From contig JAUSHJ010000071.1 of assembly GCA_030648615.1 (NCBI GenBank), forward strand, positions 830 to 64,829: a stretch of DNA of 64,000 nt, written 5' to 3'. How positions within the stretch are numbered: position 1 is the stretch's first letter; the number at the start of each line of letters is the position of its first letter. The notes below the pieces were generated by a model that saw only the letters and a list, made by a program, of their open reading frames with translations, searched no databases and was not told where the DNA came from. Source of the DNA: Candidatus Micrarchaeota archaeon (lineage in GTDB: Archaea > Micrarchaeota > Micrarchaeia > Anstonellales > Bilamarchaeaceae). Positions 711-53,295 of this stretch are shown here, piece after piece. The position numbers were made by a program, and so were the translations under genes.

Positions 711-831
711 AGTAGAAGCTCGCAAAGCGAGCGGTAGACAAGCTTTTCGCTCTGAGCGAAAAGATGTCCATTGTTGCAAGGCAACAATTGGAAGGTAGAA
801 CGACTGCTAGAAGGTAAAGAGTATTTCTACT
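711..831. repeat. Tandem-hairpin cassette, intergenic
   Basis: GCTCGC-AAA-GCGAGC (718-732), CTTTTCGC-TCTGA-GCGAAAAG (743-763), ATTGTTGC-AAG-GCAACAAT (770-788); closing arms AGTAGAA (711-717) / TTCTACT (825-831). Confidence 0.8.
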
Positions 832-878
832 AACAGCATTTAGTAACATTGATAAACACTCCTAATCATGATATTCTT

Positions 879-1766
879 ATGAATATGGCAACTAAAATAA
901 AGGCAGTAAGAGCAAATCCAATCAAATCACCACTAAAAGACGTTTTGTTGTCCAGTTTAAGGGAGTACTCTGAAATAGGTTCAACTACTATAGATGGAAA
1001 AAGATTTACACCAGATAGATCTTTCGAATTAGCAAAATTCTTATTCAAATTATCATTAGGACATACTGTCGGTGCGGTAATAATCCCAGTACCGGAAAAA
1101 AAACCTGTGTTCGTAGTAGGAGACAAAGTACATAGTTTTGGAGTGAAAAACGAAACCACAGTAATTATTTTAGCTAATTGTGAAACTAACTTAGTAGATA
1201 TGCCTTACGGATCTCCGTTTTTAGGATATGTACCAAACCAAGGTTTTGTACCATTAGGGCAGTATGTATTTGTAGACGGGGTAGAAAGAATATTAACTCA
1301 ACCTAAAAATCCGCTCACTTTTAGAGTATTGGAACGTCTGGGGCCAGATGAAGCATTAAACACCGTACTTTTCGATGCAATAAACGCTGATAACGTATAC
1401 ATGAATCTTGTGGCAAACGCCAAAGATGTTCGAGATCAGGACATAAGAGGTTTAATGAGTATGATTCTCTCAACTGAACCGTTGATAGCATTTCTGGAAT
1501 GGTTGACGAATGTTCCACCTGAAACAAAAACAGAAATACTTAGAAGCTTCGGAATAGAAAGAGAAGAACAATTGTTTTCAATTGAAGCGATACCTCTTAG
1601 AGTAAAGATTGGCACTTTAGCAAACAACTTGGTTAGTAGTTATCTGAAAAAACATGGATATCCGAATATAGCTGAACTAATAGATACCCAAGCGATAGCA
1701 GATATAGGTCTAAACGTATTTGGAGGAAATTTCGGAGCATCTGTAGTGTTGGTGCAACCAAAATAG
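879..1766 (+). CDS. Hypothetical protein (orphan)
   Basis: Long ORF; first ATG at 879 (ORF track uses TTG at 849); no motif recognised. Confidence 0.6.
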   Translation: MNMATKIKAVRANPIKSPLKDVLLSSLREYSEIGSTTIDGKRFTPDRSFELAKFLFKLSLGHTVGAVIIPVPEKKPVFVVGDKVHSFGVKNETTVIILANCETNLVDMPYGSPFLGYVPNQGFVPLGQYVFVDGVERILTQPKNPLTFRVLERLGPDEALNTVLFDAINADNVYMNLVANAKDVRDQDIRGLMSMILSTEPLIAFLEWLTNVPPETKTEILRSFGIEREEQLFSIEAIPLRVKIGTLANNLVSSYLKKHGYPNIAELIDTQAIADIGLNVFGGNFGASVVLVQPK

Positions 1767-1771
1767 GGAAC

Positions 1772-1831
1772 CTGAAACTGAGAATCCAAAATCTAGACTC
1801 AAAACCAGAGACAAGACTTGAAACCAACTAC
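1772..1831 (+). repeat. Degenerate heptamer array (NNRARAC-like)
   Basis: ctgaaac tgagaat ccaaaat ctagac tcaaaac cagagac aagac ttgaaac caactac, immediately after the stop at 1766. Confidence 0.6.
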
Positions 1832-1869
1832 TTGGCTACTTTTATAAATCATAGAGCAGAATCTCTTCT

Positions 1870-2865
1870 ATGGTGGAGTTAACAGATACGCTCAGATTAG
1901 CAACAATAGTAGTAACTATTTCTATAATACTCTCAGGTATAGCTCTTGGTTTAGGAAGATCTCTGGGATATAGAAATATGGAGAATTTTGGAAAGGAAGA
2001 ACTTGGACAATCAATAATAAACGCTGCATTGTTAGGCATAGCAGCTACAATTATTGAAACTACTAAATCAATATCGGCAGATGCTGTAAAAGATACGATT
2101 TGTCAAGCAGCAATTAGCGAAGATGCCATAGCAAAAATAAGCTGCATACAACAAAGTCTTAGTACTGCACTTTTCGGTTTAATCCAGGAAAATATAAAAA
2201 CGCTAAACATAGTCGGCTATTACCAGACATTATCTCTTAATTTTGGTTCATTTTCAATACAGCCATTCATAAATCTCGGAGGAGTGAGTTCAACATTGCA
2301 ATCACAGTTACTGATACTAGAAAATACTCTCATTATGATTAATCTAAATTCACAATTCATTGATTTCATTTCTCAAAATGCATTTGGACTTATATTCGCT
2401 CTAGGGCTAATATTCCGTGCTTTCTTTGCAACAAGAAAATTAGGTGGTTTCCTAATTGCACTCGCCATAGGATTATTTGTGTTTTATCCGATATTTATAA
2501 TGGCATTTCCTACTCCGTATACAGAAATACAAAGTGCAACCGTAAATGCGTCGTTATTCAATAACAATACAAATTACGCATTGATCCCGATAGTTGACCT
2601 TAACGGCAATAATGCCATAGCACAAAAACTTGATAGCCTAGCTGGAAGAACTAGCAACGTAACAAATTCTACCATGACTATGACTGATTTCAGCGGAGAC
2701 TTAACCACCATAATCGGATTAAATGCCAATGCGATAGCCAAAACACTATTATATTCAGTCATAGCCCCAATATTCTCACTCATCATCACAGTCGTATTTA
2801 TAAAAGAACTCTCAAATATCTTAGGAGGAGAGATTGCTTCAGGGCAGATTTTTAACAATCTTTAA
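1870..2865 (+). CDS. Multi-pass membrane protein, first gene of the VirB4-like operon
   Basis: Several hydrophobic helices; stop overlaps the next start. Confidence 0.75.
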   Translation: MVELTDTLRLATIVVTISIILSGIALGLGRSLGYRNMENFGKEELGQSIINAALLGIAATIIETTKSISADAVKDTICQAAISEDAIAKISCIQQSLSTALFGLIQENIKTLNIVGYYQTLSLNFGSFSIQPFINLGGVSSTLQSQLLILENTLIMINLNSQFIDFISQNAFGLIFALGLIFRAFFATRKLGGFLIALAIGLFVFYPIFIMAFPTPYTEIQSATVNASLFNNNTNYALIPIVDLNGNNAIAQKLDSLAGRTSNVTNSTMTMTDFSGDLTTIIGLNANAIAKTLLYSVIAPIFSLIITVVFIKELSNILGGEIASGQIFNNL

Positions 2866-3662
2866 TGAGGGGAATTATGGCAGTAAGCAACAGACTTGTA
2901 ACAGGAATTGCAATAGGTGGAGGCATACTCTCGATACTTTCTGCATTCAGTTTAGGTAGCGTGATATTCACAGTTATTGCAGCACTACTATTTCTAATTT
3001 CCCTAGTAGTATGGAAATATGGGCATATTTTAATTCCAGCAATAACCAAAGCAACAAATTTTATAGAAGTAAGAGATGGTTATGAAATATCCCCAACTAG
3101 AGATTATATAATAAAGAAAAGTGAAAATGGATATTATGCAAGCAAATTCCTTGAAATAAGATTCTACGAAAGTACCATGGACAAACAGGAAGAACAGAAG
3201 ACTTCCATGATAGAATCATTTGAACGCGCCATAAGCTCTCTCAAGTATATAGTAAAGATTTCACTACTTATTTCAGCAGTTGACCTCTCAAAACACATTG
3301 ATGACATAAAAACTAAGAGAGGTTCTGCAGAAAGCAAAAAATCAAAAATTGCCAAAGAAGGAAGCGATGAGGGCATAAGAACTGATAGGGAAATAGCAAT
3401 GTGGAACAGATTGCTTGACCGCATAACTCACGGTGAAAGACCAGTGGAAGTTATTGCTTATGCTAGCACTACTTCATTTGGATTAACCAAAGAAGAAGCC
3501 GTTGCAAAAGTAAGAAGGCAGGCTAAAGAGATTAGAACGATACTCTCAAGCACCTTGGGATGCGACATAGTTGAAATGGTTGATTTAGATATGGTGAAAT
3601 GTTTCGAATGGGATAAATTTTTTCCTGCAACTCAGGAAGAACTAAGAGATGAATTGTTCTAA
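2865..3662 (+). CDS. Membrane-anchored protein (2 N-terminal TM helices plus soluble/coiled domain), VirB4-associated
   Basis: N-terminal hydrophobic hairpin, charged helical middle region; operon context. Confidence 0.7.
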   Translation: MRGIMAVSNRLVTGIAIGGGILSILSAFSLGSVIFTVIAALLFLISLVVWKYGHILIPAITKATNFIEVRDGYEISPTRDYIIKKSENGYYASKFLEIRFYESTMDKQEEQKTSMIESFERAISSLKYIVKISLLISAVDLSKHIDDIKTKRGSAESKKSKIAKEGSDEGIRTDREIAMWNRLLDRITHGERPVEVIAYASTTSFGLTKEEAVAKVRRQAKEIRTILSSTLGCDIVEMVDLDMVKCFEWDKFFPATQEELRDELF

Positions 3663-3688
3663 TGAACAACTATTCTAAGCGTGTTTAA

Positions 3689-4336
3689 ATGGACTTGTTA
3701 TCTGCACTGGCAAATGGAACCTGTCTCGGACCTCTTTTCGTAGGAACAGTAATCTTAACTTTACTTAACAACTTATGGATCAGTTTAACTAAGAGAAACG
3801 GAATAGCTTATCTCCATACCGACAATAGAGAACCAAACAAATGGATATTATATTTACTATCCGTGGTTTCTACGCTTACCGTAATCCCGATATTACTATT
3901 GACAATATATAATATCCAAAATTACACGATTGCAGATATTATGGTAATAGGCGCATGGATAACCATGAGCTCATTATTATTTGGCTTAATAAGAGTAGAC
4001 ACCTATGAGTTCCTAGGCAACAGACTATTCTTATTATTTGCATGGTTGGGCACCATGGCTCTAACAGAATATGGATTACTTGCTCATCTAAGAATGATAG
4101 GTGGAACACCTACACTTTTTGCAGATTCATTAACTATATTAGGTGTAATAATCGTAAGTATGATGTCTCAGGTTACTGTTACTCAGGAATCTGAATTTTA
4201 TGAGGAAAACGAATTGGAAAGTATCACACCAAAAATTGAAACTGAATCGGAAGTTGAACCTAAAACAAAATTTAAGATTAGTAGAAAACCTAATGCTGAA
4301 AAGGATATGAGAAAGAAAAATAAGGTGAAACTGTAG
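3689..4336 (+). CDS. Multi-pass membrane protein with charged C-terminal tail
   Basis: About 5 hydrophobic segments; operon context. Confidence 0.7.
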   Translation: MDLLSALANGTCLGPLFVGTVILTLLNNLWISLTKRNGIAYLHTDNREPNKWILYLLSVVSTLTVIPILLLTIYNIQNYTIADIMVIGAWITMSSLLFGLIRVDTYEFLGNRLFLLFAWLGTMALTEYGLLAHLRMIGGTPTLFADSLTILGVIIVSMMSQVTVTQESEFYEENELESITPKIETESEVEPKTKFKISRKPNAEKDMRKKNKVKL

Positions 4337-4361
4337 ATGAATTGTCCCATGGAACAACAAG

Positions 4362-4466
4362 CTTGTCGCAAAACGACAAGGTACAATCAACAACAAAAGT
4401 TGTTGATGCACATTGTTTTCAACAGAAAACAATCGTGCCTATTGTTCGAATATCGAACAATCAGGA
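4362..4466. repeat. Tandem-hairpin cassette, four hairpins
   Basis: CTTGTCG-CAAAA-CGACAAG (4362-4380), ATCAACAAC-AAAA-GTTGTTGAT (4386-4407), ATTGTTTTC-AACA-GAAAACAAT (4412-4433), ATTGTTCG-AATAT-CGAACAAT (4441-4461). Confidence 0.85.
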
Positions 4467-4488
4467 TATCTCGACAGGTGATGTCTCG

Positions 4489-5928
4489 ATGAAATTATCA
4501 TACTTATTATCCAAAGAACTTTCCAGAAGAATGATACTTGTCCATCCTCCAGAACCAAGAAAAGATTTACTACTTGCACCTCCTGATGATGCAATATACT
4601 TAGGAAGAACAAGATACTTGGGAACTCCAGTCTTCTGGGATCCGACAAAACTTATCAACCCACATATAGCAATAGTAGGGATAACCGGAAGTGGAAAATC
4701 CTATTTGGTTAAATCTTTCCTCACACGAGCCAGCATGATATGGAACACCAATGCGATTATACTTGACTGGGTAGGAGAATACGTAAAATGGGTAGAACAA
4801 GCTGGGGGAACAGTGATAAAACTTGGAAAAGAAAAGTTAAATCTTCTAGATCTTGCTGGAGTGGAAAAAACAGAAAGGATAAAACAAATAATTTCTGCTC
4901 TAGATATTCTACTTAACTTAAAGCAATATCTTAACGAAAGAGATGAAATAGAAGAAGCGCTTGAAGAGATTTATGAAAAAATGAAGAAACCAACTCTAGT
5001 AGATGTTGTAAAACATTTAGAAACAAAAAAACATAAAAAAGCTGCAAGACTTATAAAAAAATTTACTATAGAAGGAAGTGACTTCTTTGCTGGAAAATCC
5101 ACGCTCAACATAAGAGAACTTACTAAAACTGGCTTAGTATGCTTGGATCTCCATGAATTACCTACGGAAGAAATTCGCTCTCTAGCTGGTTTGACCATAC
5201 TTCAGTATATAAAAGAAACGATGAGGAAAACTAAAGTAGGTGAAGAAAAAGGAATAAAATTATTTGTAGTATTAGATGAAGCATGGAAAATAGCCCAAGA
5301 CGAAACCAGTGACGTCATAACCATAGTAAGAGAAGGAAGAAAATACAATTTCGCACTTATTGTCGCAACTCAGAACCCTACCGACATGCATAAAACGATA
5401 TTCAGCAACGTAGGTACAATGTTCATACTTAGATTAGTACTTAGAGAATTCAGAGATTATGTAAAGAATTCTATAGGTTATAGTGAATTTATAGATCAGG
5501 AAATGGGTAAATTTGGAGTAGGAGACGCTGCAATCAATATGATATTTGCAGAAAGGCAATCAAGAATCACTACGTTCTTATTAAACAAGATTGATGGAGA
5601 AGAACCACTTTTCCAATTCAAGATAAAGGGTGGGGACATGGATGTTGAAATAGAAAGAGAACAGTTCATAAAAATGCTTTACGAAATTGGATTAAATGAA
5701 GGACAAATAAATACGTTAAAACTGGAATTCGAAAAAAACGATGGCATAGTTGAAGGAGAAAGGCTAGTCTCTATTTTAGAAAAATTTGGCTACTCAAAAC
5801 CATCGATAATATCTTTTCTAAGGCAACTTGGTATAGATGAGAAGAATTTAATACATATATTCTCCTTAGTAAGAATGAGAAAGGCATCCAAGGGAGTAGT
5901 TAACATAGTGCTAGATAAGAAGGTATAA
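4489..5928 (+). CDS. VirB4/HerA-FtsK-superfamily ATPase
   Basis: Walker A GITGSGKS, Walker B FVVLDEAWK, REGRKYNFALIVATQNP. Start moved to ATG 4489 (SD AGGTGA upstream); the 49 extra codons in the ORF track are the hairpin cassette. Confidence 0.85.
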   Translation: MKLSYLLSKELSRRMILVHPPEPRKDLLLAPPDDAIYLGRTRYLGTPVFWDPTKLINPHIAIVGITGSGKSYLVKSFLTRASMIWNTNAIILDWVGEYVKWVEQAGGTVIKLGKEKLNLLDLAGVEKTERIKQIISALDILLNLKQYLNERDEIEEALEEIYEKMKKPTLVDVVKHLETKKHKKAARLIKKFTIEGSDFFAGKSTLNIRELTKTGLVCLDLHELPTEEIRSLAGLTILQYIKETMRKTKVGEEKGIKLFVVLDEAWKIAQDETSDVITIVREGRKYNFALIVATQNPTDMHKTIFSNVGTMFILRLVLREFRDYVKNSIGYSEFIDQEMGKFGVGDAAINMIFAERQSRITTFLLNKIDGEEPLFQFKIKGGDMDVEIEREQFIKMLYEIGLNEGQINTLKLEFEKNDGIVEGERLVSILEKFGYSKPSIISFLRQLGIDEKNLIHIFSLVRMRKASKGVVNIVLDKKV

Positions 5929-5930
5929 AT

Positions 5931-6632: not shown

Positions 6633-6761
6633 ATGCCTAAAATCACTAAATTTAATTTTGTTATTCTTAAGAATTACAACAAAGAGAGAAAATTTATTGT
6701 GCTTAAACCATTTAAGAATTCTCCATTTGACAGATTGGTGGGGATTTTTAGAAGGAAATAA
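6633..6761 (+). CDS. Small basic ORF, 42 aa (MPKITKFNFVILKNYNKERKF...), not in the ORF track
   Basis: ATG directly after the preceding stop, SD-like GGAGTGA upstream, stop followed by an A/T tract. Confidence 0.4.
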   Translation: MPKITKFNFVILKNYNKERKFIVLKPFKNSPFDRLVGIFRRK

Positions 6762-6771
6762 AAAAAGAGAA

Positions 6772-8092: not shown

Positions 8093-8197
8093 AGTAGTTT
8101 CTTTGCATGGTTAATTGAGGCGATGGTAGTATATTTTAATTTACCCTCACATTTGAGGCTTTAACGATTTATAGAAAAAGAACAGGTTCCCACGGAA

Positions 8198-8762: not shown

Positions 8763-8844
8763 AAATACCCCTTTGTACAATTTATATTATTATAATAGCA
8801 CTAAAGTATTATAAATAATGCATATTGGTATTTAATAGTATTAT

Positions 8845-9507: not shown

Positions 9508-9569
9508 ATGTAAGGTTTGGATGATAAAGTTTTAATTGTTGAGCGATAATCGTAAATCAGGTGTAATTC

Positions 9570-10868: not shown

Positions 10869-10933
10869 TATGATTGGCATTTGGTACTAATTTATATCAA
10901 AATTAGTAAATAGTAAAAGAAAACGTTTATAAT

Positions 10934-27764: not shown

Positions 27765-27813
27765 ATTTTAGGAAGGGATTTACTTTGCAGTGCAAAGATC
27801 TAATTTTAGGAAG
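27765..27813. repeat. Hairpin flanked by an 11-bp direct repeat
   Basis: ATTTTAGGAAG at 27765-27775 and 27803-27813 around CTTTGCA-G-TGCAAAG. Confidence 0.6.
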
Positions 27814-27978
27814 AAAGGAAGACCTACTCTAATTAAGGGAGAAAGGCTGGAAAAATTATTGAAACTGTATTATACAGAATCGCATTCTATACGGAAAATA
27901 GCTGATATCTTAGGTGTATCCAAGACAACTATTCTTAGAACAATTAATAAAAAAATTAAAGGTGATTTATATGAATAA
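27790..27978 (+). CDS. Small HTH DNA-binding protein (resolvase-like HTH); 5' end possibly disturbed
   Basis: KKGRP...SHSIRKIADILGVSKTTILR. The SD-backed ATG at 27747 is out of frame and stops at 27801-27803. Confidence 0.6.
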   Translation: MQRSNFRKKGRPTLIKGERLEKLLKLYYTESHSIRKIADILGVSKTTILRTINKKIKGDLYE

Positions 27979-28483
27979 CTTGAAATGGGTAGAACGTAAT
28001 AGGAAAAATATACCATTACGCATAATACATGCAGGAGTTAGGTTGGATAATCCTTTGGTTGAACGATTATCTAGAATTGTCACTGAAACCATTGGTAAGT
28101 CCGGTTCTCCACACCCGAAGCAAACGGTGGAAATATTGGAAAGATTATTGAAATCTCTAGCACTAAGAAGTATAGAAAACAGTAAAAGAATTGATGGAGC
28201 AGAAGTGCCATATCTTCGCTTTGAAGACCTGATGGCTCTCCCGTCAATAGAAATAGGAAACATTGAAGGGTTAGTCAAAATGCTAGAATTGTATGCAAAG
28301 CTAGAACATATAACTCCAGGTGCATTTTATATGGGAATCAAGCGTGAAGCTCGAAAACTCAATATTTTGGATCATTTCTCCAGAAATATGGCAAAAAGAG
28401 ATGAATTTTTGCGTACAAAAAGGCTTGGACAGGGAGAAAACTATGTTGATTGTGAAACTTTTTTCAGATCGATAAACATCTGA
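27971..28483 (+). CDS. Hypothetical protein
   Basis: ATG 27971 with SD GGTGA, overlapping the HTH stop. Confidence 0.55.
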   Translation: MNNLKWVERNRKNIPLRIIHAGVRLDNPLVERLSRIVTETIGKSGSPHPKQTVEILERLLKSLALRSIENSKRIDGAEVPYLRFEDLMALPSIEIGNIEGLVKMLELYAKLEHITPGAFYMGIKREARKLNILDHFSRNMAKRDEFLRTKRLGQGENYVDCETFFRSINI

Positions 28484-28576
28484 ATCTACCAAAAATTGAT
28501 TACAATATTATGGCTATTCTGGGGAGTTGTCCCTCCCTGCATTTTGCTTTTAAACTAAAGCTTTTTTGTTAGCTTT

Positions 28577-28981
28577 TCATTCGGTAGATTTGCCATCATA
28601 CTCTTCAGGTAAAGATAATGCATCTGATTTAGTACTCCTTATAGTCTTGTCAATATGTTCTGGTGGAGAGTAAATAGTATAAAATTTCAACTTAGTTGTC
28701 TTTGAGGTATTCGTTACATTATGTTTTGCACCAGCAGGTATGATTATGCCATGGCCATCAGCAACTATATGATTTACGCCATCTATGAAAACAACACCTT
28801 CACCCGATTCAAATCTGAAGAACTGGTCTAGGTGAGCATGTACTTCTTTTCCAATTTCCTCTCCTGGATTTAAACACATCAATACGAGTTGACTATGTTT
28901 GCCAGTGTAAAGTACTCTTCTGAAATCTTGATTTTTTTCAGTTTCATTTTCAAGATTAATTGCATATCCTTTCAATGCCAT
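28577..28981 (-). CDS. Cupin-domain protein
   Basis: RVLYTGKHSQLVLMCLNPGEEIGKEVH...DQFFRFESGEG...IPAGAKHNV. Confidence 0.9.
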   Translation of the reverse strand: MALKGYAINLENETEKNQDFRRVLYTGKHSQLVLMCLNPGEEIGKEVHAHLDQFFRFESGEGVVFIDGVNHIVADGHGIIIPAGAKHNVTNTSKTTKLKFYTIYSPPEHIDKTIRSTKSDALSLPEEYDGKSTE

Positions 28982-29044
28982 AGTTATCACCTTTTTCGGT
29001 TTAATCCATTCAAAAATAAAAAACAAAAAAAGAAAATTATTTAG

Positions 29045-30307
29045 TTACCTTTTATTGTTTACTACAACAAACGTGCCGTTCTTAAGGAGTATTGACCCCT
29101 TTAGAAGGGAAACCTTGTACGTACCTGCAGTTGTAACTGAAACCTGAACTGAACCAAGAGCACCAATTTTAAATATTCTAACTGAACCCTTTGGACTAGT
29201 TACAAGCACATTACAACCGATACATGAATTTCCATCAAAACCAGTTGCCTTTATGATTGCATTTGCTCCCACTTGAGAATTTATTGGCATTATCATTCCA
29301 TGCAACTGAGAAATCTTATTGCTATATATTTTAGTCACGGATGATATTGATTTAACAGGTGTAATAACAGGCGTAACACAAATGTGATTAACGATCTGAC
29401 CAGAACACCCTATTTTGCTGCATGAACCTAAGGCGCAATTTTGTGTTGCACTGCAATCAGAATTAACTACACACTGTGGAATTAAAACTGATTTTGGTGT
29501 AACGTTCGTTGATGTAACTTTCGGATTAACTATCGGAGTAACAATTAGAGCAGATGATGTTGATCCTGATGGTGCTGTCACCATATTAGCATCCAATGTA
29601 ACTGCAGTCTGAGCTAATGCTCTTCCGTTTAATTTTGCACCAGTATTTAATACAATTGCAGTTTGAGAAAGAATTATTCCTTTAAAATCTGAAGTTGTTC
29701 CAAGTGTTGCTTGACCTGCAACCTGCCAGAAGACATTCTTTGCCTGGGCACCGCCGCTCAAAGTAATAATGGCACCATTGCCAACATCTAGATCTTGTGC
29801 AATCTGAAATATCCAAACATCGTTTGAACTTCCAGAAAGTGTGACACCATTATTTATTATAACTCCAGTTCCCCATTTATAGAGACCTGGAGCAATTGTC
29901 ATTCCGCTAATATCTCCAGCTCCCAATTCAGTTGCTGTAGGATTTGTTCTTCCTGCGGCATCAGTGTATGCTATTTCCATATCACCTATGGTTGTAGTCA
30001 TAGCAGTTGGAGTCGGAGGAGTATAATCAGGTGCATGTATTTTTCCTGTTACCAAAGATGACCTCGAAAAGGTATTTGAAGAATCTGCGATCAGTCCAAA
30101 TCCAGTTATCCCTGTACTATCGATTGGGCTTACACCCATATCACCAGTAACGTAGGTGGTACCAGTAGTTGAAATTCCTGATTTTGATAGAATAACAAAA
30201 TTACCTGCTGTCCCTAGATTTACTGCTGCTGGACCTGCAGCACTGATTATCTGCACTAAAAACAGAAATAAGAATGCAAAACTAAATATTGTTTTATACG
30301 ATACCAT
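29045..30307 (-). CDS. Secreted DUF3494 ice-binding-like protein with C-terminal Ig-like domain
   Basis: Signal peptide; AVNLGTAGNFVILSKSGIS, PGLYKWGT, AQAKNVFWQVAG, GRALAQTAVTLD. Confidence 0.88.
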   Translation of the reverse strand: MVSYKTIFSFAFLFLFLVQIISAAGPAAVNLGTAGNFVILSKSGISTTGTTYVTGDMGVSPIDSTGITGFGLIADSSNTFSRSSLVTGKIHAPDYTPPTPTAMTTTIGDMEIAYTDAAGRTNPTATELGAGDISGMTIAPGLYKWGTGVIINNGVTLSGSSNDVWIFQIAQDLDVGNGAIITLSGGAQAKNVFWQVAGQATLGTTSDFKGIILSQTAIVLNTGAKLNGRALAQTAVTLDANMVTAPSGSTSSALIVTPIVNPKVTSTNVTPKSVLIPQCVVNSDCSATQNCALGSCSKIGCSGQIVNHICVTPVITPVKSISSVTKIYSNKISQLHGMIMPINSQVGANAIIKATGFDGNSCIGCNVLVTSPKGSVRIFKIGALGSVQVSVTTAGTYKVSLLKGSILLKNGTFVVVNNKR

Positions 30308-30426
30308 TTTTCATCAACTCCATCTAAAACTTAATACGTGCGATTGCTGTAAATTCGAAAGAATTTACAATAAAAGAAAATATAAAAATAAAAAAAGAAA
30401 ATTAATACGTCTTGATAGGTAGTAAA

Positions 30427-41596: not shown

Positions 41597-41657
41597 GATG
41601 GTGATTGTGAGCTGTAATTTTTATTTGTATCTAAGAATTGCCAATTTTGGGGCGATC

Positions 41658-41706
41658 TTCAAATATGTAATATTTGAACGAGCTAGAGAACAACTGGATG
41701 TTCTCT
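41658..41706. repeat. Two-hairpin cluster, intergenic
   Basis: TTCAAATAT-GTA-ATATTTGAA (41658-41678); AGAGAACA-ACTGGA-TGTTCTCT (41685-41706). Confidence 0.55.
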
Positions 41707-44810: not shown

Positions 44811-44909
44811 GATATAATAATGTATATAATCATTTTTAAACACATCTTAACATAATATTACTACGTTTGAGGTTAATTATGAGTATAGAGCCAGTAATAT
44901 TCGAGTTAT

Positions 44910-45061
44910 GTGAACCCTCCCAGCACTAAAGTGCTGGGCTTCCAGCTATTTTAGAAGAATCCTGAAAGACTTAGTTGTTCTGGCTCATGTTCTAACTGCT
45001 GAATTGTCTGGTTAAATGTGTGGTCAATTCACTACGGACTAAAGTCCATAGATTTCTTGAC
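44910..45061 (+). mobile_element. Non-autonomous IS200/IS605-type element (PATE-like)
   Basis: TTAT then GTGAACC; hairpin CCCAGCAC-TAAA-GTGCTGGG (44919-44938); second hairpin CAATTCA-CTACGGAC-TAAA-GTCCATAG (stem 45032-45051); no ORF between them. Confidence 0.65.
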
Positions 45062-45110
45062 ATTCTTTTGGTACCGGGGAGCTTTCTTATGGGGGTGTCA
45101 GGAATCCCAG

Positions 45111-45243
45111 GGACCGATAAATCGAAAACGATTTATGGTTTGACAAGAATTTCTTGTCAAATATTGACAAAGTTTTTGCAACTTTGTCAATGGTCCATAT
45201 TTCGAAGTTTCGAAATATCGGAAACTAGAGGGGCGCTCCCCTC
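45111..45243. repeat. Tandem-hairpin cassette, five hairpins
   Basis: ATAAATCG/CGATTTAT, TTTGACAAGAA/TTCTTGTCAAA, ATTGACAAAGT/ACTTTGTCAAT, ATATTTCGAA/TTCGAAATAT, AGAGGGG/CCCCTCT. Confidence 0.85.
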
Positions 45244-46244
45244 TGGTTGGCCTTTAAATTCCCTTCCGGGAAATAATTGAAAGTATGATCCTTGAATATT
45301 GGAAAGGTTTCAAAATCAGAAATAACATCACCAAATTTATCTCTTAGTTCCACAACAAAACTCTGAAATTCGATTCTATTTTTTACTTCTACTTCTACAC
45401 CTATGCGCCAGCGGCCAATGTGGTTCACAACGAAGGTCACATTTTGACTAGCTAAAAGAAAATTATTCAGTTGTTTTTCTCTGTCTGACTGAAGATTATT
45501 TATCCCTAAAAATAGCATGTAGACCTCATAGCCAATAGCAAAAGGATGAATCATTGCACGATAGCCCAATATGAGTTTATTTTGTTCCATTTTTTTTATT
45601 CTTGCAGTTACAGTCTTATCTGAAACTCCAAGTTTATTGGCAATTTGTAAATTTGAGAGAAATGCATCTGTGGAAATCACATCTACTATTTGCTTATCTA
45701 AATCATCAAAACCCAATTCAGAATTAAATTTCATGCTATGTACAAAGTATTTTCTTTCTAGTTGTTCTTCCTTTATTTTATCATCAAGAAGATATATACG
45801 AGATTGATCTCTAACATTTATGTAAACTAAAATTTCATAAGCTTTTACGAATTTACCGTATTTATTTAAAAAATCTTCAAAAATAGTATTGAAAGAATAG
45901 TTATCTTTAGTTATAAAATTTACAATTACATCCCAATTGCCCCCTACTTCCCCTACCCACATGGCACTTGGGTGATTAGAGAGAAATTCCAGAAGTTGTT
46001 GCTTCTGAACTTTACCAGCACCACCTAATCTTATCAATACTCTAAACCAATTATAGCCAACTAGAACACTATCAAAAATAGTTAATGCTGCTTGTATAAT
46101 GCCTTCTTTTTTCATTTTATTTATTCTGTATAATGCTACTTGCCTACTGACACCCGTTTTCTTGGCTAGTTCGCCAATCGGCATTCTGGCATTCATATCA
46201 AGAAAATATAGAATACGACGATCTTTTAGATCTAATTTAGGCAT
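45225..46244 (-). CDS. Tandem-duplicated Lrp/AsnC regulator
   Basis: DLKDRRILYFLDMNARMPIGELAKKTG; second unit DDLDKQIVDVISTDAFLSNLQIANKLG. Confidence 0.9.
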   Translation of the reverse strand: MPKLDLKDRRILYFLDMNARMPIGELAKKTGVSRQVALYRINKMKKEGIIQAALTIFDSVLVGYNWFRVLIRLGGAGKVQKQQLLEFLSNHPSAMWVGEVGGNWDVIVNFITKDNYSFNTIFEDFLNKYGKFVKAYEILVYINVRDQSRIYLLDDKIKEEQLERKYFVHSMKFNSELGFDDLDKQIVDVISTDAFLSNLQIANKLGVSDKTVTARIKKMEQNKLILGYRAMIHPFAIGYEVYMLFLGINNLQSDREKQLNNFLLASQNVTFVVNHIGRWRIGVEVEVKNRIEFQSFVVELRDKFGDVISDFETFPIFKDHTFNYFPEGNLKANQRGAPL

Positions 46245-46365
46245 ATTTTACTTTTAGTAAGTTTTATTTATAAATACTCCGAAAATGCTAATTTTTAGCC
46301 AATAACTTTTAAATACTTGGAATGTGTGAAATAGTTAGGAAAAATGATTAAATGAGGTAAATATT

Positions 46366-47001: not shown

Positions 47002-47067
47002 ACAGTTAAAACATAAACATACCTCTAACCGTTCTATCTAATAACAGGAGTAATCTAAATTCCAATC

Positions 47068-48375: not shown

Positions 48376-49308
48376 TTAAACGTACTTTATGAATTGTTCG
48401 AAGACGAATTGCACGAATGGTTTTTCATCTTTATTTTCTACTGAACTGATCAGGGCATCAAAATATTTGTCAGTGTCTTTTGATATATTTAACATAGGAT
48501 AACCAAAATCAAGAAATGCTTTGTTGAACAATAAACGAGATACTCTTTTGTTTCCATCCTTAAATGGATGAATCATATAAAAGCGAAGATGTAGCAATGC
48601 TGCCAGTTCTATTGCGTTCAAGTTACCAAGACTTGTATTGTACCATTCTACAAGTTCCCTGAGTTTATTATGTAGAACATCTGGAGTTGGTGGTCTGAAA
48701 CGTATTTCCTCAGCTTTTTCATAACTTTTCAGATAGATGTAAGCTTGTTCCTTTCTAAATGTACCTGGATTCTTTTCTTTGTATTCATCCATTATAATCT
48801 GGTGTAGTTTAAGGATAAAATCTTCAGTTATACCTTTCTTACTTTCTTTTACATATCTTAGACCTTTTATCATATCAAGCGCTACTCTAAGATTTTCATC
48901 GCGTATAGTTTTGATATTCTTTTGATCAAATTTGTAGGCTAAACCAGCATCTTCTTTTGTTATAGGTACACCCTCTGTTGTCAGAGTAGTATATACAAAA
49001 TTTACGGTATCAACTTCCTCTTTTTCATCCAGTTTTGCTTTTCCTAATTTCTTGAATTTCACAGCGAATCTCCGCTTTCTCTTTTCTACTTCTATAAGCT
49101 GCTCTCTTGTAACATACAGAAATTTTTGCTTACCTAGTAAGGAACCATAAATTTTATCCAAAAGTTCTTGTCTTTTTCTTTTGAGATTTATTTCATCTGG
49201 AATTTTCTTGCCTAAAAAAATAGAGTAAACTTTTGGAGTTTCCAACCTAAGTGTTTCTTCCAGATAGTAGTATTCGTTTCCCTTTACGATTTTTTTCCTT
49301 ATGCCCAT
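48376..49308 (-). CDS. Fic/Doc-family protein
   Basis: HPFKDGNKRVSR motif; N-terminal KKIVKGNEYYYLEET. Confidence 0.9.
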   Translation of the reverse strand: MGIRKKIVKGNEYYYLEETLRLETPKVYSIFLGKKIPDEINLKRKRQELLDKIYGSLLGKQKFLYVTREQLIEVEKRKRRFAVKFKKLGKAKLDEKEEVDTVNFVYTTLTTEGVPITKEDAGLAYKFDQKNIKTIRDENLRVALDMIKGLRYVKESKKGITEDFILKLHQIIMDEYKEKNPGTFRKEQAYIYLKSYEKAEEIRFRPPTPDVLHNKLRELVEWYNTSLGNLNAIELAALLHLRFYMIHPFKDGNKRVSRLLFNKAFLDFGYPMLNISKDTDKYFDALISSVENKDEKPFVQFVFEQFIKYV

Positions 49309-49445
49309 AGTATTATTTGGAGGTAAACATTAATAAGGTTATCATACATTTTTAAGTCTAAATGTATGCCTAAAAATTACGACGTAAAAAATTATAATAC
49401 ATTTTTTGAAATAATGTAAGGTAAATGACTATTTCTAAGCTAAAA

Positions 49446-50024
49446 CTATTTCTTTTTTGGTACAACTGATAGATCCTTCTTAGTTACAAGACTAACTTCA
49501 ATGAACAGAGTACCAAGATGATCATAGAAAATATCTGAAACTTTTAAAGTTTGTGTTTCGGTACCTATATTAGTAGTTTTAACATTAGTTCCTTTGATTG
49601 TTACATCAAGTAGAGGTTTTGATGGAAAGAGAAGTGGTGAAGCTTCAGCCAAACCTGATTTTACGGCATCTACCATTGAAGCAACATCTGCTTTGTCAAC
49701 AACATATTCTATAAGTAAAAATCTGGATTTGTAAGCAGTGCTCATTTCAAAAACAGCTGCTTCAATACCTTTGAGGTCCGGTGTTCCTCCACCTTGAGAA
49801 ATTGCGCGAGCACCACCTTTTGTAAGAACATTGTGTAGTTCGAACCCTGGAGAGGATGGATTTTTACGATCTGCATTAGTTACAAAAGATTTAAGATCAG
49901 TATAAGTACGTGGTGGAACTATATGAACTTCTCCATCGTGGGCAGGGATACTTTTAAACATTCTATCTAAGGATTTAATTCCTTTATCGTGATCAGTTTC
50001 TTTTAGTTGCTGTGCTTGCTCCAT
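49446..50024 (-). CDS. Hypothetical protein (orphan)
   Basis: 192-aa ORF with SD AAGGTGA. Confidence 0.55.
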   Translation of the reverse strand: MEQAQQLKETDHDKGIKSLDRMFKSIPAHDGEVHIVPPRTYTDLKSFVTNADRKNPSSPGFELHNVLTKGGARAISQGGGTPDLKGIEAAVFEMSTAYKSRFLLIEYVVDKADVASMVDAVKSGLAEASPLLFPSKPLLDVTIKGTNVKTTNIGTETQTLKVSDIFYDHLGTLFIEVSLVTKKDLSVVPKKK

Positions 50025-50070
50025 TTTTTCACCTTCGAAAATTTATGATTCAAATGTTTTAATAATGTAT

Positions 50071-51528
50071 CTATTTCTTAGCCAGTCGTTCCAGCGTCTC
50101 CACAACTAACCTCAAACCAATTCCAGAAGCACCCTTATCCAAATAAGGATGTTTCTCAACTGCGTCTACTGCTGCAATATCAAGATGTGCCCATTTAGTT
50201 TCTCCTATGAACTCTTTCAGGAAACAAGCTGCAGTTATACTGCCTGCATCACCTGACTCACTACCGATATTCTTAACATCGGCAAAATCTCCTTTATCCA
50301 TATCTGAATATTCCTGATCAAGAGGCATTCTCCATACTCGTTCGAATGTATGCTCGCCAGCATCGAAAATTGCTATTGCTAATTTGTCATCATTACTAAA
50401 AAGACCAATCCTGAAACGACCAAGGGCAACAATTATTGCACCAGTCAAAGTAGCAAGATCAATCATGTATTCTGGTTTTCGCTCAGCTACATATGCAAGA
50501 GTATCTGCTAGAATAAGCCGACCTTCAGCATCGGTATTTAGTACTTCTATGGTTTTTCCATTATAAGAAGTAACAATATCGCCAGGCCTTTGTGCAGTAC
50601 CGGAAGGCATATTTTCAGTAGCAGTAAATGCACCTATAAGTCGAATTTGTAATTTCAACTCAGCAACTGCTTTCATTATCCCAAGAGTAGTTATTGCTCC
50701 AGTCTTATCATATTTCATTTCCTGCATTCCTTTTGCTGGTTTTATAGAAATACCACCAGAATCAAATGTAATTCCTTTTCCGACTACAGAATAAAGAGGT
50801 AAATTCTTCTTGTCTTTATTGTATTCCATTAAAACCATAACAGGTGGCAACGGACTACCTTGATTAACTCCAAGAATTGCATTCATACCTTTTTTCTTCA
50901 TCTCCTCTTTTCCTAAAACTTCAATCGCGAACCCTTTTTCTTTTGATAGTATTTGTGCTAACTCTGCAAGTTTCTGAGGAGTAGCGATGTTCGCTGGATT
51001 TTCGTTATTGTCCCTGACATAATTCTGTGCTGTTCCAAGAATAAAACCTTTTTGCACTGCAACTGAAACGTCTTCTGTACCCACAACAGTAATCTGTTTT
51101 ACCTCGAAATAATCGTCCTTTTTGCTCTTGAATTTTATGCATTTGTAATTTGCAACTGTTGAAGCTTCTACAATTGCCTGAGCAAAATCAGAAGGTGAAA
51201 CTCCTTTGGTTTTTGGAAGTGCAATAGAAATATTATCGCTTTTCATTCCAATTGCAACTCTAATTGCAGTACCTGCAAATCTCCTGACAAAATCAAGATT
51301 GAAATCCTTTTCTTCGCCGAGACCATAGAGCAATAATTTCTTGAATGATAATTTTCCAAGAGTAGTTAAAGTTACTGCTTGCCCTACTTTCCCTTCAAAC
51401 TCCTCCTTTCGAAGAGTTTTAGTAAGCTCACTTAGTTCTTTTGGAAATTCCAAATTTTGTAAAACTGCTACACATAGCAATTCGTCTTTAACTTCGGTCA
51501 ATTGTTGTTTTTTAAATGAAATTTGCAT
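50071..51528 (-). CDS. pepA: Leucyl aminopeptidase (M17)
   Basis: VGKGITFDSGGISIKP, MKYDKTGA, EVLNTDAEGRLILAD, IDLATLTGA, WAHLDIA. Confidence 0.96.
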   Translation of the reverse strand: MQISFKKQQLTEVKDELLCVAVLQNLEFPKELSELTKTLRKEEFEGKVGQAVTLTTLGKLSFKKLLLYGLGEEKDFNLDFVRRFAGTAIRVAIGMKSDNISIALPKTKGVSPSDFAQAIVEASTVANYKCIKFKSKKDDYFEVKQITVVGTEDVSVAVQKGFILGTAQNYVRDNNENPANIATPQKLAELAQILSKEKGFAIEVLGKEEMKKKGMNAILGVNQGSPLPPVMVLMEYNKDKKNLPLYSVVGKGITFDSGGISIKPAKGMQEMKYDKTGAITTLGIMKAVAELKLQIRLIGAFTATENMPSGTAQRPGDIVTSYNGKTIEVLNTDAEGRLILADTLAYVAERKPEYMIDLATLTGAIIVALGRFRIGLFSNDDKLAIAIFDAGEHTFERVWRMPLDQEYSDMDKGDFADVKNIGSESGDAGSITAACFLKEFIGETKWAHLDIAAVDAVEKHPYLDKGASGIGLRLVVETLERLAKK

Positions 51529-51665
51529 ATGTACACCCCTAATCGAATTCTCTTATTGTAATAATATTACATTTATCAATATCAGATTTACTAGGCCCAA
51601 TAACAGAGCAATGCGAGTTACTACAATTGTATGGCTTAAATTCAAATGTGCAATTACTGTCTCGA

Positions 51666-51685
51666 GCAAAACTGGAAACTAAAAC
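51666..51685 (+). repeat. Heptamer array fragment
   Basis: CAAAACTGGAAACTAAAA (51667-51684) is identical to 53897-53914. Confidence 0.6.
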
Positions 51686-51764
51686 AGAAAAAGAAAGAAA
51701 TGCAGCTGAAGAAATTATGATTCTTCCAACAAATGATTTTGTTCTTTGTCTCAAATTTACACCT

Positions 51765-53087
51765 TCAATTGAAGAGAATCATTTTTATCATCTCAGGAAG
51801 AGAACTAAATTTAGATTTCTCTTCTGAATGTAGTAATGAAGATGATATCGCTCTTCTCATCTTTTCACTATTAGCTGCCTTGTCAATCATCCAATTAAGC
51901 AACCATTTGTGCTTACCCCACTTCTGCATTCTATAACTGTTCTTGAGATCTCCATCAATTTCCTTGGACAATTCAGTTTCATATTCCACCAGAGTAACAG
52001 CACTAAAATCGTTTTTCTCGAATGCTTTGGCAATTATTTGAGAACTTATCTTACCACTTATAAGTGAATTTCCAATGCCTTCACCGCTGAATGGATCAAT
52101 GAGAGAACCTGCATCACCTATAATAAGATAGCCATCACCGAAACATTTTACTCTATTTGAACCAAGAGGCAATTGCCATCGTTTCACATCACTTATTCTT
52201 TCCGCACCTTCAAATCTAGCTTTGAAAACAGGATGATTTTCAATTATGCTGAACATTATTTTTTCCATATTTGATTTGGTACTTTTTATATCACTAACGA
52301 GCATGCCTACGCCAACGTTTGCCTTGCCATCTGGCAAAGGAAATATCCAGAAATAGCCGGGGAGTAATTCTTCTACAAAATGTAGCTCAATGGTGTCATT
52401 CATTCCTTTTACTCCTTTATAATATGCGCGAAGCGCACTGCATTGATGATCTTCTTTAGTATTAACAGCATTGAATTTTTTTGCAACTACTCCGCCTACA
52501 CCATCTGCACCTACAATGACTTTAGCAGTAAACGTCATTTTCTGACCAGTTGGCATGTGATTTCCTGTGACGCCCGTAACAATTCCGTTTTCCTGAATCA
52601 AATCGTTTACAAAAAATTGTTCGATAGTTGTAGCAAATTTCTTAGCATTCTGGAAAAGAACATTATCGAATACTTCTCTTCTGCAAACAAAACCTGGAGG
52701 GAGATTAGGATCTTTTGAAGGTGTATCTATCTTGACTACCGTACCTTTAGGATTTGAAAAAGTAACACCGTACATTTTCATATGCTCGACTTTTTCCATT
52801 TCAGGAAGCATTCCCAATTCTTTGAGAACACCTACACTTTTCCCGCTTATGCCATCTCCACAAGTTTTATCTCTTGGGAATTTTGCTCTGTCTAAAAGAA
52901 GAACTTTCTTGCCTGCTTTACCGAGATACATGGCACAGGAACTTCCTGATGGTCCACCACCAACGATTATAACGTCAAAGGAATCTCCATCTTTCGCAGC
53001 CAGAGAACTAGAAGGTTTCGGAATTTCTTTCGAAACTTCGGCTGCCTGAGCTGATTTAAATTCTAAAGTTGTTTTTTTAGCAATCAT
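51765..53087 (-). CDS. Geranylgeranyl-reductase-family protein with an N-terminal extension of about 35 aa
   Basis: DVIIVGGGPSG, FPRDKTCGDGIS, GYFWIFP, IIGDAGSLIDPFSGEGI; SD GAGGGTGA before ATG 53087. Confidence 0.9.
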   Translation of the reverse strand: MIAKKTTLEFKSAQAAEVSKEIPKPSSSLAAKDGDSFDVIIVGGGPSGSSCAMYLGKAGKKVLLLDRAKFPRDKTCGDGISGKSVGVLKELGMLPEMEKVEHMKMYGVTFSNPKGTVVKIDTPSKDPNLPPGFVCRREVFDNVLFQNAKKFATTIEQFFVNDLIQENGIVTGVTGNHMPTGQKMTFTAKVIVGADGVGGVVAKKFNAVNTKEDHQCSALRAYYKGVKGMNDTIELHFVEELLPGYFWIFPLPDGKANVGVGMLVSDIKSTKSNMEKIMFSIIENHPVFKARFEGAERISDVKRWQLPLGSNRVKCFGDGYLIIGDAGSLIDPFSGEGIGNSLISGKISSQIIAKAFEKNDFSAVTLVEYETELSKEIDGDLKNSYRMQKWGKHKWLLNWMIDKAANSEKMRRAISSSLLHSEEKSKFSSLPEMIKMILFN

Positions 53088-53126
53088 ATAATTCACCCTC
53101 TAAGTTTAGTAATCAGATTTTTCTAA

Positions 53127-53295
53127 GAGTATCCTCGCTTCGCTCAAAACCGTGCGCAAGCGCACGGTATGCACTCATTCGAAAAATACTCGCAACATTA
53201 TTGTCGCAAGCGACAATATGCATCTTGCTGCAAAAAGCAGCAAGCATGAGTCATGTCGATGATTTACCCGTACACGACAAGCATGGTACTCTCAC
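53127..53295. repeat. Tandem-hairpin cassette in the GGR 5' leader
   Basis: ACCGTGCGC-AA-GCGCACGGT (53149-68), TATTGTCGC-AA-GCGACAATA (53199-218), CTTGCTGC-AAAAA-GCAGCAAG (53224-44), plus an imperfect GAGTCATGTCG...CGACAAGCATGGTACTC stem. Confidence 0.85.

Follow-up and report, generated by a model that had tools for sequence, protein, structure and literature searches.

The tandem-hairpin cassettes described here were found in a 64,000-nt stretch of DNA (hereafter the window), which comprises positions 830-64829 of contig C44 in the genome of a Candidatus Micrarchaeota archaeon, a small symbiont. The cassettes belong to a hairpin-cassette family that is genuine and occurs far above chance, and their absence from orthologous sites of close relatives supports that they are recent insertions. 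Insertion, modularity, nesting, variable junctions and a restricted distribution were all observed directly. With regard to their nature, the chances are in our view about even that the cassettes form a family, specific to this lineage, of selfish DNA elements that are very small and non-autonomous and are copied and pasted at short homologies.

Hairpin cassettes in the window and in the source genome

The source genome (G000; 1.65 Mb on 76 contigs, 36% G+C) is about 90% complete, and the genes of the window are archaeal, among them those for the primase PriS, a CedB/HerA-like ATPase, a class III signal peptide protein and a DUF460 protein. The genomes of the relatives are small (0.8-1.6 Mb). 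Coordinates without prefix are window positions; C-numbers denote contigs of the source genome, other G-numbers related genomes and L-numbers contigs or loci of congeners.

A scan for perfect hairpins with a stem of at least 7 bp and a loop of 2-9 nt yielded 66 hairpins in the window. Together with reading of the letters, it recovered all eleven hairpin loci listed in the initial annotation of this DNA. The recurrent stem starts described there were also seen, ATTGTT/ATTGTC feet at six loci of the window and ATAAATC at two. Genome-wide, 110 clusters of abutting hairpins (at least two hairpins with stems of at least 8 bp and a gap of at most 12 nt) were counted, compared to three in each of two second-order Markov simulations. 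The cluster density is therefore about 35 times the composition-matched expectation and not that of chance. Stems of 9 bp were 3.5-fold over-represented (239 observed, about 68 expected) and stems of 10 bp 7.5-fold (113 observed, about 15 expected). The sequence ATTGTT...AACAAT occurred 79 times in the genome, where base composition predicts roughly six occurrences, and 65 of these 79 sites (82%) extend by at least two more complementary pairs.

The cassettes of the window and the features that carry them are listed in the following; a strand is given where one was assigned.

711-800: intergenic cassette after the PriS gene (hairpin scan)
4343-4489: 147-nt cassette of four hairpins (4362-4461), lying between the stop codon of the upstream gene and the ATG of the CedB/HerA-like ATPase gene, with GATGAA on either side
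22423-22533, forward strand: 111-nt in-frame insert (37 aa) of three hairpins (22450-22530) between domains I and II of a phosphoglucomutase/phosphomannomutase (PGM), with AAAGGA on either side
26648-26702, forward strand: 55-nt double hairpin that follows codon 9 in the DUF460 (RNase H-like) gene, consisting of a 10-bp stem with an 11-nt loop and an 8-bp hairpin (26650-26701)
26959-27015, forward strand: 57-nt double hairpin of the form CCG-hairpin-GGTCC-hairpin-CGGA, in frame (19 aa) in the DUF460 gene (two hairpins, 26963-27012)
27288-27373, forward strand: upstream copy of tRNA-Leu exon 1 (27288-27300), 26-nt single-hairpin insert (27301-27326, perfect hairpin at 27305-27322) and relic D-loop intron (27327-27373)
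27374-27618, forward strand: tRNA-Leu(CAG) with a T-loop intron that carries a double hairpin
27766-27814: one hairpin of 6 bp (ctttgc/gcaaag), enclosed by 11-nt direct repeats ATTTTAGGAAG (read from the letters)
41645-41706: intergenic double hairpin (41658-41706; ttcaaatat/atatttgaa and agagaaca/tgttctct) upstream of the inositol-1-phosphate synthase gene (hairpin scan)
44909-45258, reverse strand: internally deleted, non-autonomous copy of an IS200-family insertion sequence (IS), host of the cassette 45114-45222
45114-45222: 109-nt cassette of five hairpins (45117-45218) with GGA on either side; a second pair (tttgac.../attgac...) is nested in the linker of an outer pair of the form CCG-hairpin-GGTCC-hairpin-CGGA
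53127-53295: intergenic cassette with three perfect hairpins (53149-53244; hairpin scan)

Empty sites in congeners and in repeat copies

The species representatives include no genome of the same genus, but congeners are found in metagenome assemblies; groundwater samples with the congener are ERZ27253369, ERZ909605 and GCA_900218215.1. The groundwater contigs L049-L052 show the same gene order from the PGM gene to the DUF460 gene and tRNA-Leu (81-83% protein identity and about 90% nucleotide identity), and L053 and L054 cover the region from PriS to CedB with 91% and 96% protein identity, respectively. All comparable cassettes, i.e. six cassettes of the window at 81-96% protein identity, are cleanly absent from these contigs. 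These are 4343-4489, 22423-22533, 26648-26702, 26959-27015, 27301-27326 and, together with the hairpin pair it carries, the intron 27443-27603. In L054 and L053 the gene that ends at 4336 in the window abuts the CedB-like gene as TAGATG. At the PGM site, where the congener is 81% identical, the congener reads GAGAATGGG directly followed by ACTAAG, and the window reads GAAAAAGGA, the 111 additional nt and ACGAAA; five orthologues from other genera of the family also lack this insert. The 55-nt insert in the DUF460 gene is a clean indel in comparison to congener L050. The 57-nt insert of the same gene is likewise a clean indel and is absent in 20 of 20 relatives with a match. Both the 26-nt hairpin of the D-loop intron and the whole 161-nt T-loop intron are missing in the congener, and a syntenic congener contig of 7.1 kb contained no hairpin cluster. 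In the spacer downstream of PriS, congener L053 showed no module of the 711-800 type, in a region where the alignment is poor.

A seventh empty site was detected within the source genome itself, where 45114-45222 is missing from two other copies of the IS200-derived repeat. The copies on C63 and C47 read CCCAGGGA followed by AACTAG where the window has 109 extra bases, and deletion of these bases recreates C63:1-124 and C47:14087-14217 at the junction. Filled and empty states also coexist in a 130-nt MITE (miniature inverted-repeat transposable element) with terminal inverted repeats (TCATGTGTCAATTCGGC...GCCGAATGGGCAAATCAT), which is present in about 20 copies (e.g. C18:3500-3629, C12:727-856 and C65:58513-58642). 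Nine of these copies are bare, and the rest carry hairpin pairs of 50-55 nt at four internal sites, singly or combined.

The comparison with relatives that had been proposed for these loci thus revealed empty sites for seven cassettes of the window, six in congeners and one within the genome. Because the orthologous loci lack the cassettes instead of carrying the same sequence, mobility is supported. The initial annotation had considered a modular family of either selfish or structural nature; the empty sites and the excess over chance speak for the selfish one. A purely structural nature found no support, because close relatives lack the cassettes at the orthologous positions, no orientation bias is seen and one cassette breaks a reading frame.

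Modular architecture

The basic module is a perfect hairpin of 8-12 bp with a conserved foot, a variable tip and a variable loop of 2-5 nt. Conserved feet are ATTGTT, ATTGAC, CTTGTC, TTTGAC, ATTATT and AYAAAT, and complementarity of the stems is nearly always perfect although tips and loops vary. About 15-20 stem families with 5-20 copies each can be distinguished by the foot of the hairpin (foot words ATTG, TTTG, CTTG, ATAA or ACAA, with at least 15 families). Their feet are ATTGTTGC, ATTGTTCGA, ATTGTTTTC, ATTATTTTC, ATTGACGCG, ATTGACACGA, CTTGTCGC(T), TTTGACGC, ATAAATCNA, ACAAATCNA and ATTTTTCC.

The unit usually inserted consists of two unlike hairpins and measures about 50-57 nt. The hairpins are joined by short G+C-rich words (GCGC, GCAC/GTGC, GGGCAT, TGCAT or GGTCC), and these linkers form an outer stem of 3-5 bp across exactly one bulged base in 100 of the 286 clustered hairpins, compared to about 14 expected. 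Loops of 1x1 and bulges of 2 nt were not enriched at the outer stems of these 286 hairpins. The bulge lies 5' in the first hairpin of a pair and 3' in the second, which results in the layout X-A-hairpin1-X'-hairpin2-T-X.

Modules recur and are nested. One 22-mer module is identical at ten loci with differing neighbours, and pairs are found in linkers or loops of older hairpins, for example in C29 and at 45139-45193. Cassettes of 6-8 hairpins occur in five contigs, at the ends of C24, C29, C70 and C71 and inside C43; the location at contig ends indicates that long cassettes break the assembly.

Several cassettes of the window share modules with other loci. The cassette 711-800 contains the hairpins gctcgc/gcgagc, cttttcgct/agcgaaaag (743-763) and attgttgc/gcaacaat (770-788) amid GTAGA-like words, and its two-hairpin module recurs with the same flanks in C7, C41, C48, C29, C19 and others. 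The ends of 4343-4489 are common to a copy at C38:55060-55160. The module of 26648-26702 is also present in C15, C56, C29, C55, C54, C39 and C65 and in a tRNA intron in C38, and copies of 41645-41706 with 93% identity are located at C56:48297 and C39:29590. The cassette 53127-53295 (accgtgcgc/gcgcacggt, tattgtcgc/gcgacaata and cttgctgc/gcagcaag) has module feet typical of the family and a TGCAT linker, and no near-identical copy of it was found elsewhere in the source genome. No second copy anywhere in the source genome was found for the locus at 27765 either, which from its sequence appears to be a weak or doubtful member of the family. An interpretation of this locus as a gene-disrupting insert was rejected, as excision of the repeat unit restores no reading frame.

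Beside these cassettes, another two-hairpin motif with highly variable loops was observed at 30348-30369 and at about 13 places in the genome (among them C11:10071, C24:7305 and C56:68460). It has the form aggacaaatt-N7-aatttgtcct GT tgtaaattc-N4-gaatttaca GTAGAA, and a related form is found in frame in three paralogous open reading frames (ORFs; C34:6861, C34:18395 and C41:34225). This motif may belong to another kind of element or have a regulatory role.

Junctions of the inserts

For 13 pairs of filled and empty sites, the junction homology was determined, i.e. the bases just before the insert that equal the last bases of the insert. Its length was 7, 6, 6, 4, 4, 3, 3, 3, 2, 2, 0, 0 and 0 nt. 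The junction words were TCAAAGC (7 nt), AAAGGA and GATGAA (6 nt), ATGG twice (4 nt), TGG, CCA and GGA (3 nt) and AC and GC (2 nt); in one pair with zero homology the end of the insert is the complement of the flank. In at least one case (C29) the repeated bases are part of the conserved end of the element, which indicates homology between element and target and not a duplication by a staggered cut. Genome-wide, exact flanking repeats of at least 6 nt were present in 55 of 102 cases compared to about 30 expected, a mild excess, and among these 102 neither a preferred length of the flanking repeat nor a fixed target duplication was detected.

The flanking direct repeats noticed previously (CCA, AAAGGA, ATTTTAGGAAG and GCAGGGATGGCGG) do exist; according to the comparison with the empty sites, they represent variable junction homologies and not a fixed target duplication. 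Their variable length had been taken to point away from transposition of the DDE and IS200 types, a suggestion with which the homologies of 0-7 nt agree and which may hold. The junction pattern is unlike that of DDE transposases and fits annealing-primed copying. For a Y1-type enzyme to be compatible with the junctions, every unit type would need a target word of its own.

Location relative to genes and effects on proteins

Crude gene calls cover 90% of the genome, and 83 of the 110 clusters (about 75%) are located outside any ORF of at least 120 aa. In total, the cassettes amount to 7.2 kb, which corresponds to 4.4% of the non-coding DNA. Clusters within long ORFs are in frame and free of stop codons, with the exception of 26648-26702. 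This insert shifts the frame of the DUF460 gene after MYLIVGIDP, and the conserved N-terminus with an acidic residue is lost (the proteins of the congener and of G001 start with MYLIVGIDAGIKVGY and MYVIVGIDAGINVGY, respectively). The insert itself supplies a substitute ATG at 26670, and the remainder of the gene is intact. It is therefore probable that the insertion is very recent or, alternatively, that the shortened protein still functions. The commonest hairpin pair is oriented against the flanking genes in nine cases and in the same direction in five. This lack of an orientation bias counts against a function at the transcript level.

Cassettes in tRNA genes

A tRNA-Leu gene invaded by hairpin cassettes had been proposed in the initial annotation. 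With ARAGORN and Rfam no tRNA was identified in the window as it stands, and Rfam gave no match at the gathering score anywhere in the window. If the 161 nt at 27443-27603 are removed, ARAGORN recognizes a perfect 84-nt tRNA-Leu(CAG), which is composed of exon 1 (27374-27442) and exon 2 (27604-27618). The removed sequence is an intron in the T-loop. The precursor folds with the T-stem, a bulge of 3 nt and a helix of 4 bp, which amounts to a relaxed bulge-helix-bulge (BHB) motif, and the three-unit endonuclease of ARMAN-2 (Micrarchaeota) cuts relaxed BHB motifs at position 59/60 (PMC3239211). In the middle of the intron lies the double hairpin (27499-27546), a near repeat of the module at 4441-4461 including its flanks. 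The tRNA-Leu gene thus exists and carries a cassette, which is located in the T-loop intron and not in the mature tRNA. At the same T-loop position, G001 has an intron of 47 nt and the congener has none.

The hairpin reported at 27287 is present as well; the locus, however, represents the remnant of a D-loop intron, together with another copy of exon 1 and the 26-nt insert. This D-loop intron is still present in G001 and, according to the alignment, in the congener. Exon 1 (GCAGGGATGGCGG) occurs twice in 27288-27442, once before the relic D-loop intron and once directly before exon 2. As judged from these sequences, the duplication looks like a partial loss of the intron, possibly via a complementary DNA (cDNA) of the spliced tRNA.

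Further cassettes were found inside tRNA introns at C38:36858-37037 and C54:2478-2689. In such introns the cassettes ride harmlessly and would be spliced out together with the intron. ARAGORN detected 16 tRNA genes in the whole genome, many of them with introns of 43-125 nt. The low number is probably due to long or non-canonical introns, some of which contain cassettes. Unrecognized tRNAs with D-loop introns were noticed at C63:31650-31800 and C65:19816-19930. At least 6 of the 16 tRNAs found by ARAGORN have a cluster within 400 nt, which is not clearly above the expectation for non-coding DNA; we therefore assert the nesting in introns and no enrichment around tRNA genes. One pair (attgaaNN and ataaattN) is located directly 5' of three tRNA genes that start with GGGCTYGTAGCTCAG (C63:31602-31660, C65:19770-19830 and C32:52230-52290). 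At all three, GGGC, the first four bases of the tRNA, is repeated upstream of the pair, and its complement is found in the linker.

Downstream of tRNA-Leu, the region 27620-30310 encodes a resolvase-type helix-turn-helix ORF, an orphan ORF of 169-189 aa, a cupin protein and an ice-binding-like protein. Synteny with the congener stops right after tRNA-Leu, where the congener has an unrelated gene for 462 aa. This region is a variable island adjoining the tRNA.

Distribution among related genomes

The distribution was followed by means of the commonest pair (ATTGTTS...SAACAAT, linker, TTGT). The source genome contains this pattern 35 times; two genomes from another genus have 14 and 11 occurrences, and eleven further genomes of the family have 1-5 each. 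Accordingly, it is present in 14 of 99 genomes of the family and lacking in 85, and a reversed-pattern control gave no match. Among 401 genomes drawn from the phylum, the matches outside the family were limited to three single ones without a hairpin, and none of about 325 genomes of other families contained the module pattern. The 19-mer GCAACAATGGGCATCTTGT from the commonest pair was searched in 185,579 species genomes, where it matched four Micrarchaeota metagenome-assembled genomes (MAGs) and one additional sequence. The latter, a cyanobacterial match, was rejected as a real copy, as it is a chance match inside a gene. Viral contigs yielded no match of the 19-mer, and viruses were therefore rejected as carriers of the cassettes. 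On the basis of these searches the module family appears to be restricted to some genera of one Micrarchaeota family. These genera, with proteins of only 55-60% identity, have modules in common, which implies horizontal spread or a constraint on the feet. A search of the literature gave nothing on hairpin repeats in Micrarchaeota.

Possible modes of propagation

If the cassettes are selfish elements that spread by copy-and-paste, a single-stranded copy of a hairpin unit would anneal where the unit's end and the target share a few homologous bases, and it would be pasted by a template switch during DNA synthesis or repair. This route would leave variable junction homologies and no fixed duplication, and it would not need a sequence-specific transposase. 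New units would favour as landing sites the linkers or loops of earlier units and of other repeats, by which cassettes of 2-8 hairpins would arise. Selection would then purge harmful copies, and the survivors would be those in spacers, repeats, tRNA introns and, in frame, tolerant loops of proteins.

The single-stranded intermediate and the annealing-primed copying are what we infer, and several points weigh against them. Neither an intermediate nor an enzyme was observed. The same junction homology would be obtained if the target word were identical to the right-end cleavage word of a single-strand transposase, and two unit types were indeed each inserted twice adjacent to similar words (ATGG twice; GGGA and TGAA). 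That the feet are conserved between genera with proteins of only 55-60% identity suggests recognition by a protein or horizontal spread, neither of which is explained by a purely enzyme-free process. Furthermore, 22423-22533 and 53127-53295 contain hairpins without another copy in the genome, and copying from existing modules would be a presumption for these two.

The window encodes no mobilizing enzyme, as had been stated correctly before. The search of the genome for Y1 and RAYT (REP-associated tyrosine) transposases and for reverse transcriptases (RTs) revealed two candidates elsewhere, an IS200 Y1 transposase and a group-II-intron-like RT. In an all-against-all BLAST of the ORFs no multicopy transposase genes were found assembled.

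It is possible, if rather unlikely, that a Y1 (HUH) transposase of the IS200/IS605 or RAYT type mobilizes the units in trans by recognizing the folded hairpins, cutting beside a short word and pasting the units 3' of a similar word without duplication, as is the case for REP/REPIN and PATE elements. The genome harbors an IS200 family that appears active, consisting of a full element at C47:14087-14846 with a 142-aa Y1 transposase (PF01797, E = 6e-30), the deleted copy of the window (44909-45258), both ends of which match the full element, and further near-identical copies at the ends of C26 and C37. Hairpin-based cassettes without a fixed duplication suit such an enzyme, and so does the repeated insertion of unit types after ATGG/ATGG and GGGA/TGAA, where the last bases of the unit equal the preceding word. 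The GGTCC-type linker is complementary to both junction words and recalls the pairing of guide and cleavage site in IS608. However, the end hairpins of IS200 (CCCAGCAC... and AGAGGGG...) are unrelated to those of the cassettes, and the at least 15 stem families would demand either one very tolerant enzyme or many. Junction homology varies between 0 and 7 nt and is lacking in three pairs, and no gene of the source genome has cassettes on its sides as RAYT genes have repetitive extragenic palindromic (REP) sequences. Y1_Tnp was found in 6 of 14 cassette-positive and in 19 of 85 cassette-negative genomes of the family (p = 0.18). The cassette-rich genomes G001, G092 and G053 yielded no Y1_Tnp, which is weak evidence, as multicopy IS elements are often lost from MAGs. 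The IS200 TnpA of the genome was rejected as the driver because of its unrelated end hairpins and the uncorrelated presence. TnpB, which occurs in only one of seven cassette-bearing genomes, was for this reason also rejected as a mobilizer.

An RNA route, in which hairpin RNAs such as released tRNA introns are copied by the group-II-like RT and the cDNA is joined at short homologies, is considered unlikely. The RT gene (TIGR04416; C71:1614-2700) has a tRNA-Leu and an integrase gene as neighbours, and an RT-16 RNA (Rfam RF03019, 79-84 bits) is located just upstream of it in all three genomes G000, G013 and G053. These observations cover C71:1614-2950, outside the window, with RT and non-coding RNA, and the loci L055, L056 and L058. 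Of the 99 family genomes, 29 contain RT homologues at 63-83% identity, a conservation above that of the housekeeping proteins compared. Close homologues are present in 9 of 14 cassette-positive and in 20 of 85 cassette-negative genomes (Fisher p = 0.004); of Y1 and RT, only the RT correlates with the cassettes. Variable junction homologies would suit the annealing of a primer, cassettes are frequent in tRNA introns, and the duplicated exon 1 before exon 2 of tRNA-Leu resembles a partial replacement by cDNA of a spliced tRNA. On the other hand, the correlation may only reflect the general load of mobile DNA, which accumulates in less streamlined genomes, and 20 genomes with RT lack the cassette pattern. 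In five other genomes no cassette lies near the RT. The cassettes show neither an orientation bias relative to transcription nor a tail or another mark of retroelements. In addition, the RT of the source genome is split by a frameshift at a G10 run, with its halves in different frames; the run is G22AG5 in G013 and G9 in G053. RT and RT-16 RNA may form a phase-variable or frameshift-controlled module, which may also be a defence system.

Comparably improbable is a dedicated structure-reading system of Micrarchaeota, which would move the units by linker-target pairing or by means of the RT associated with RT-16 and which would also make or enlarge tRNA introns and write peptides and start codons. 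A guide-like form would fit the layout X-bulge-hairpin-X'-hairpin-bulge-X, with X being partly target DNA.

It is very improbable that the hairpins are not mobile at all and represent host-functional structures under selection, such as terminators, RNA stabilizers or protein-binding sites. Such structures could account for stems that are almost always perfect despite variable tips and loops, for feet conserved across genera and for pairs directly 5' of tRNA genes at three places. They are hard to bring in line with the cassette-free orthologous sites of congeners at 81-96% protein identity, with presence and absence among near-identical repeat copies, with the lack of an orientation bias or with 85 of 99 family genomes devoid of cassettes. 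Moreover, a conserved gene is frameshifted by one cassette, and other cassettes lengthen enzymes by 19-37 residues.

Finally, splicing of the in-gene cassettes out of the mRNA by the Micrarchaeota tRNA splicing endonuclease of broad specificity, which cuts relaxed BHB motifs like that of the tRNA-Leu T-loop insert at 59/60 (PMC3239211) and which would restore the frame of DUF460 by excision of the 55-nt insert, was rejected as extremely improbable, because inspection of the borders of the DUF460 and PGM inserts revealed no exon-exon helix or 3-nt bulges, nearly all cassettes in ORFs are in frame and stop-free, neither of which spliced introns need to be, and the cassettes are strongly depleted from coding DNA.

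Consequences for the genome

DPANN archaea are regarded as having streamlined genomes. In this supposedly streamlined archaeon, nevertheless, young selfish hairpin DNA would make up 4.4% of the non-coding DNA. Since the split from the congener, the PGM acquired an insert of 37 residues, the DUF460 gene two inserts, of which one breaks the start, two formerly abutting genes a spacer, and tRNA introns their passengers. The cassettes explain breaks in the assembly and probably also the low number of 16 tRNAs detected by the tool. Owing to the clean pairs of filled and empty sites, the chemistry of insertion is directly testable. If a dedicated enzyme or an RNA route were confirmed, this would constitute a new mode of moving DNA in archaea and a possible source of non-canonical tRNA introns.

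Comparison with known systems

With the REP sequences of Proteobacteria, their bacterial interspersed mosaic elements (BIMEs) and REP doublets (REPINs), the cassettes share short extragenic hairpins in hundreds of copies, mosaics in either orientation with short linkers and the lack of a target duplication. The REP doublet is likely the mobile unit in that system (PMC3116915). In contrast to REPIN-RAYT systems, in which the Y1 gene is typically single-copy with the repeats on its sides, the cassettes flank no RAYT-like gene, and the only Y1 gene is that of an ordinary multicopy IS200 TnpA. The conserved 5' GTAG head of REPs, which comprise one or a few imperfect palindromes, is absent, and instead at least 15 stem families with variable tips exist. 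The two hairpins of a cassette pair differ, with no pairing between them, whereas REP doublets consist of the same REP in inverted orientation. Some cassettes are, furthermore, located in coding DNA and tRNA introns, and the host is an archaeon.

Among transposons, the palindrome-associated transposable elements (PATEs) related to IS200/IS605 resemble the cassettes in their hairpin ends, the lack of duplication and an insertion site adjoining a short word. They differ in that the cassette hairpins are unrelated to IS200 ends, the junctions are variable and Y1 does not track the cassettes. PATEs insert 3' of one fixed tetra- or pentanucleotide; among the cassettes, two unit types were each inserted twice after similar words (ATGG/ATGG and GGGA/TGAA), yet across the 13 pairs the words differ and the homology is 0-7 nt. 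DDE-type MITEs differ in their fixed duplication, and the 130-nt MITE with terminal inverted repeats is a host of cassettes and not a member of the family. The non-canonical BHB introns of ARMAN-2 correspond to the tRNA-Leu T-loop intron, which is of the hBH type like the introns at 59/60 (PMC3239211), whereas the cassettes are passengers of introns and their own borders have no BHB motif.

Rickettsia palindromic elements (RPEs) are single elements of about 100-150 bp and belong to few sequence families. As palindromic selfish elements they survive in frame within genes, to which they add peptide segments, comparable to the 37-aa insert of the PGM and the 19-aa insert of DUF460. The cassettes differ from them as modular arrays of 20-nt hairpins in another domain of life, and the likeness is one of behaviour and probably not of sequence.

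The hairpin elements of mitochondria in Allomyces, sponges and yeast (GC clusters) occur as single, double and tandem hairpins with a patchy distribution and without flanking duplication, and they are mostly intergenic with some located in rRNA and protein genes (PMC2800124). They differ from the cassettes in their location in organelle genomes, their unrelated sequences and the missing link to tRNA introns or to nesting in MITEs and IS elements. In kind, the cassettes match REP/BIME/REPIN sequences, RPEs and mitochondrial hairpin elements, from each of which they differ in the defining features named above.

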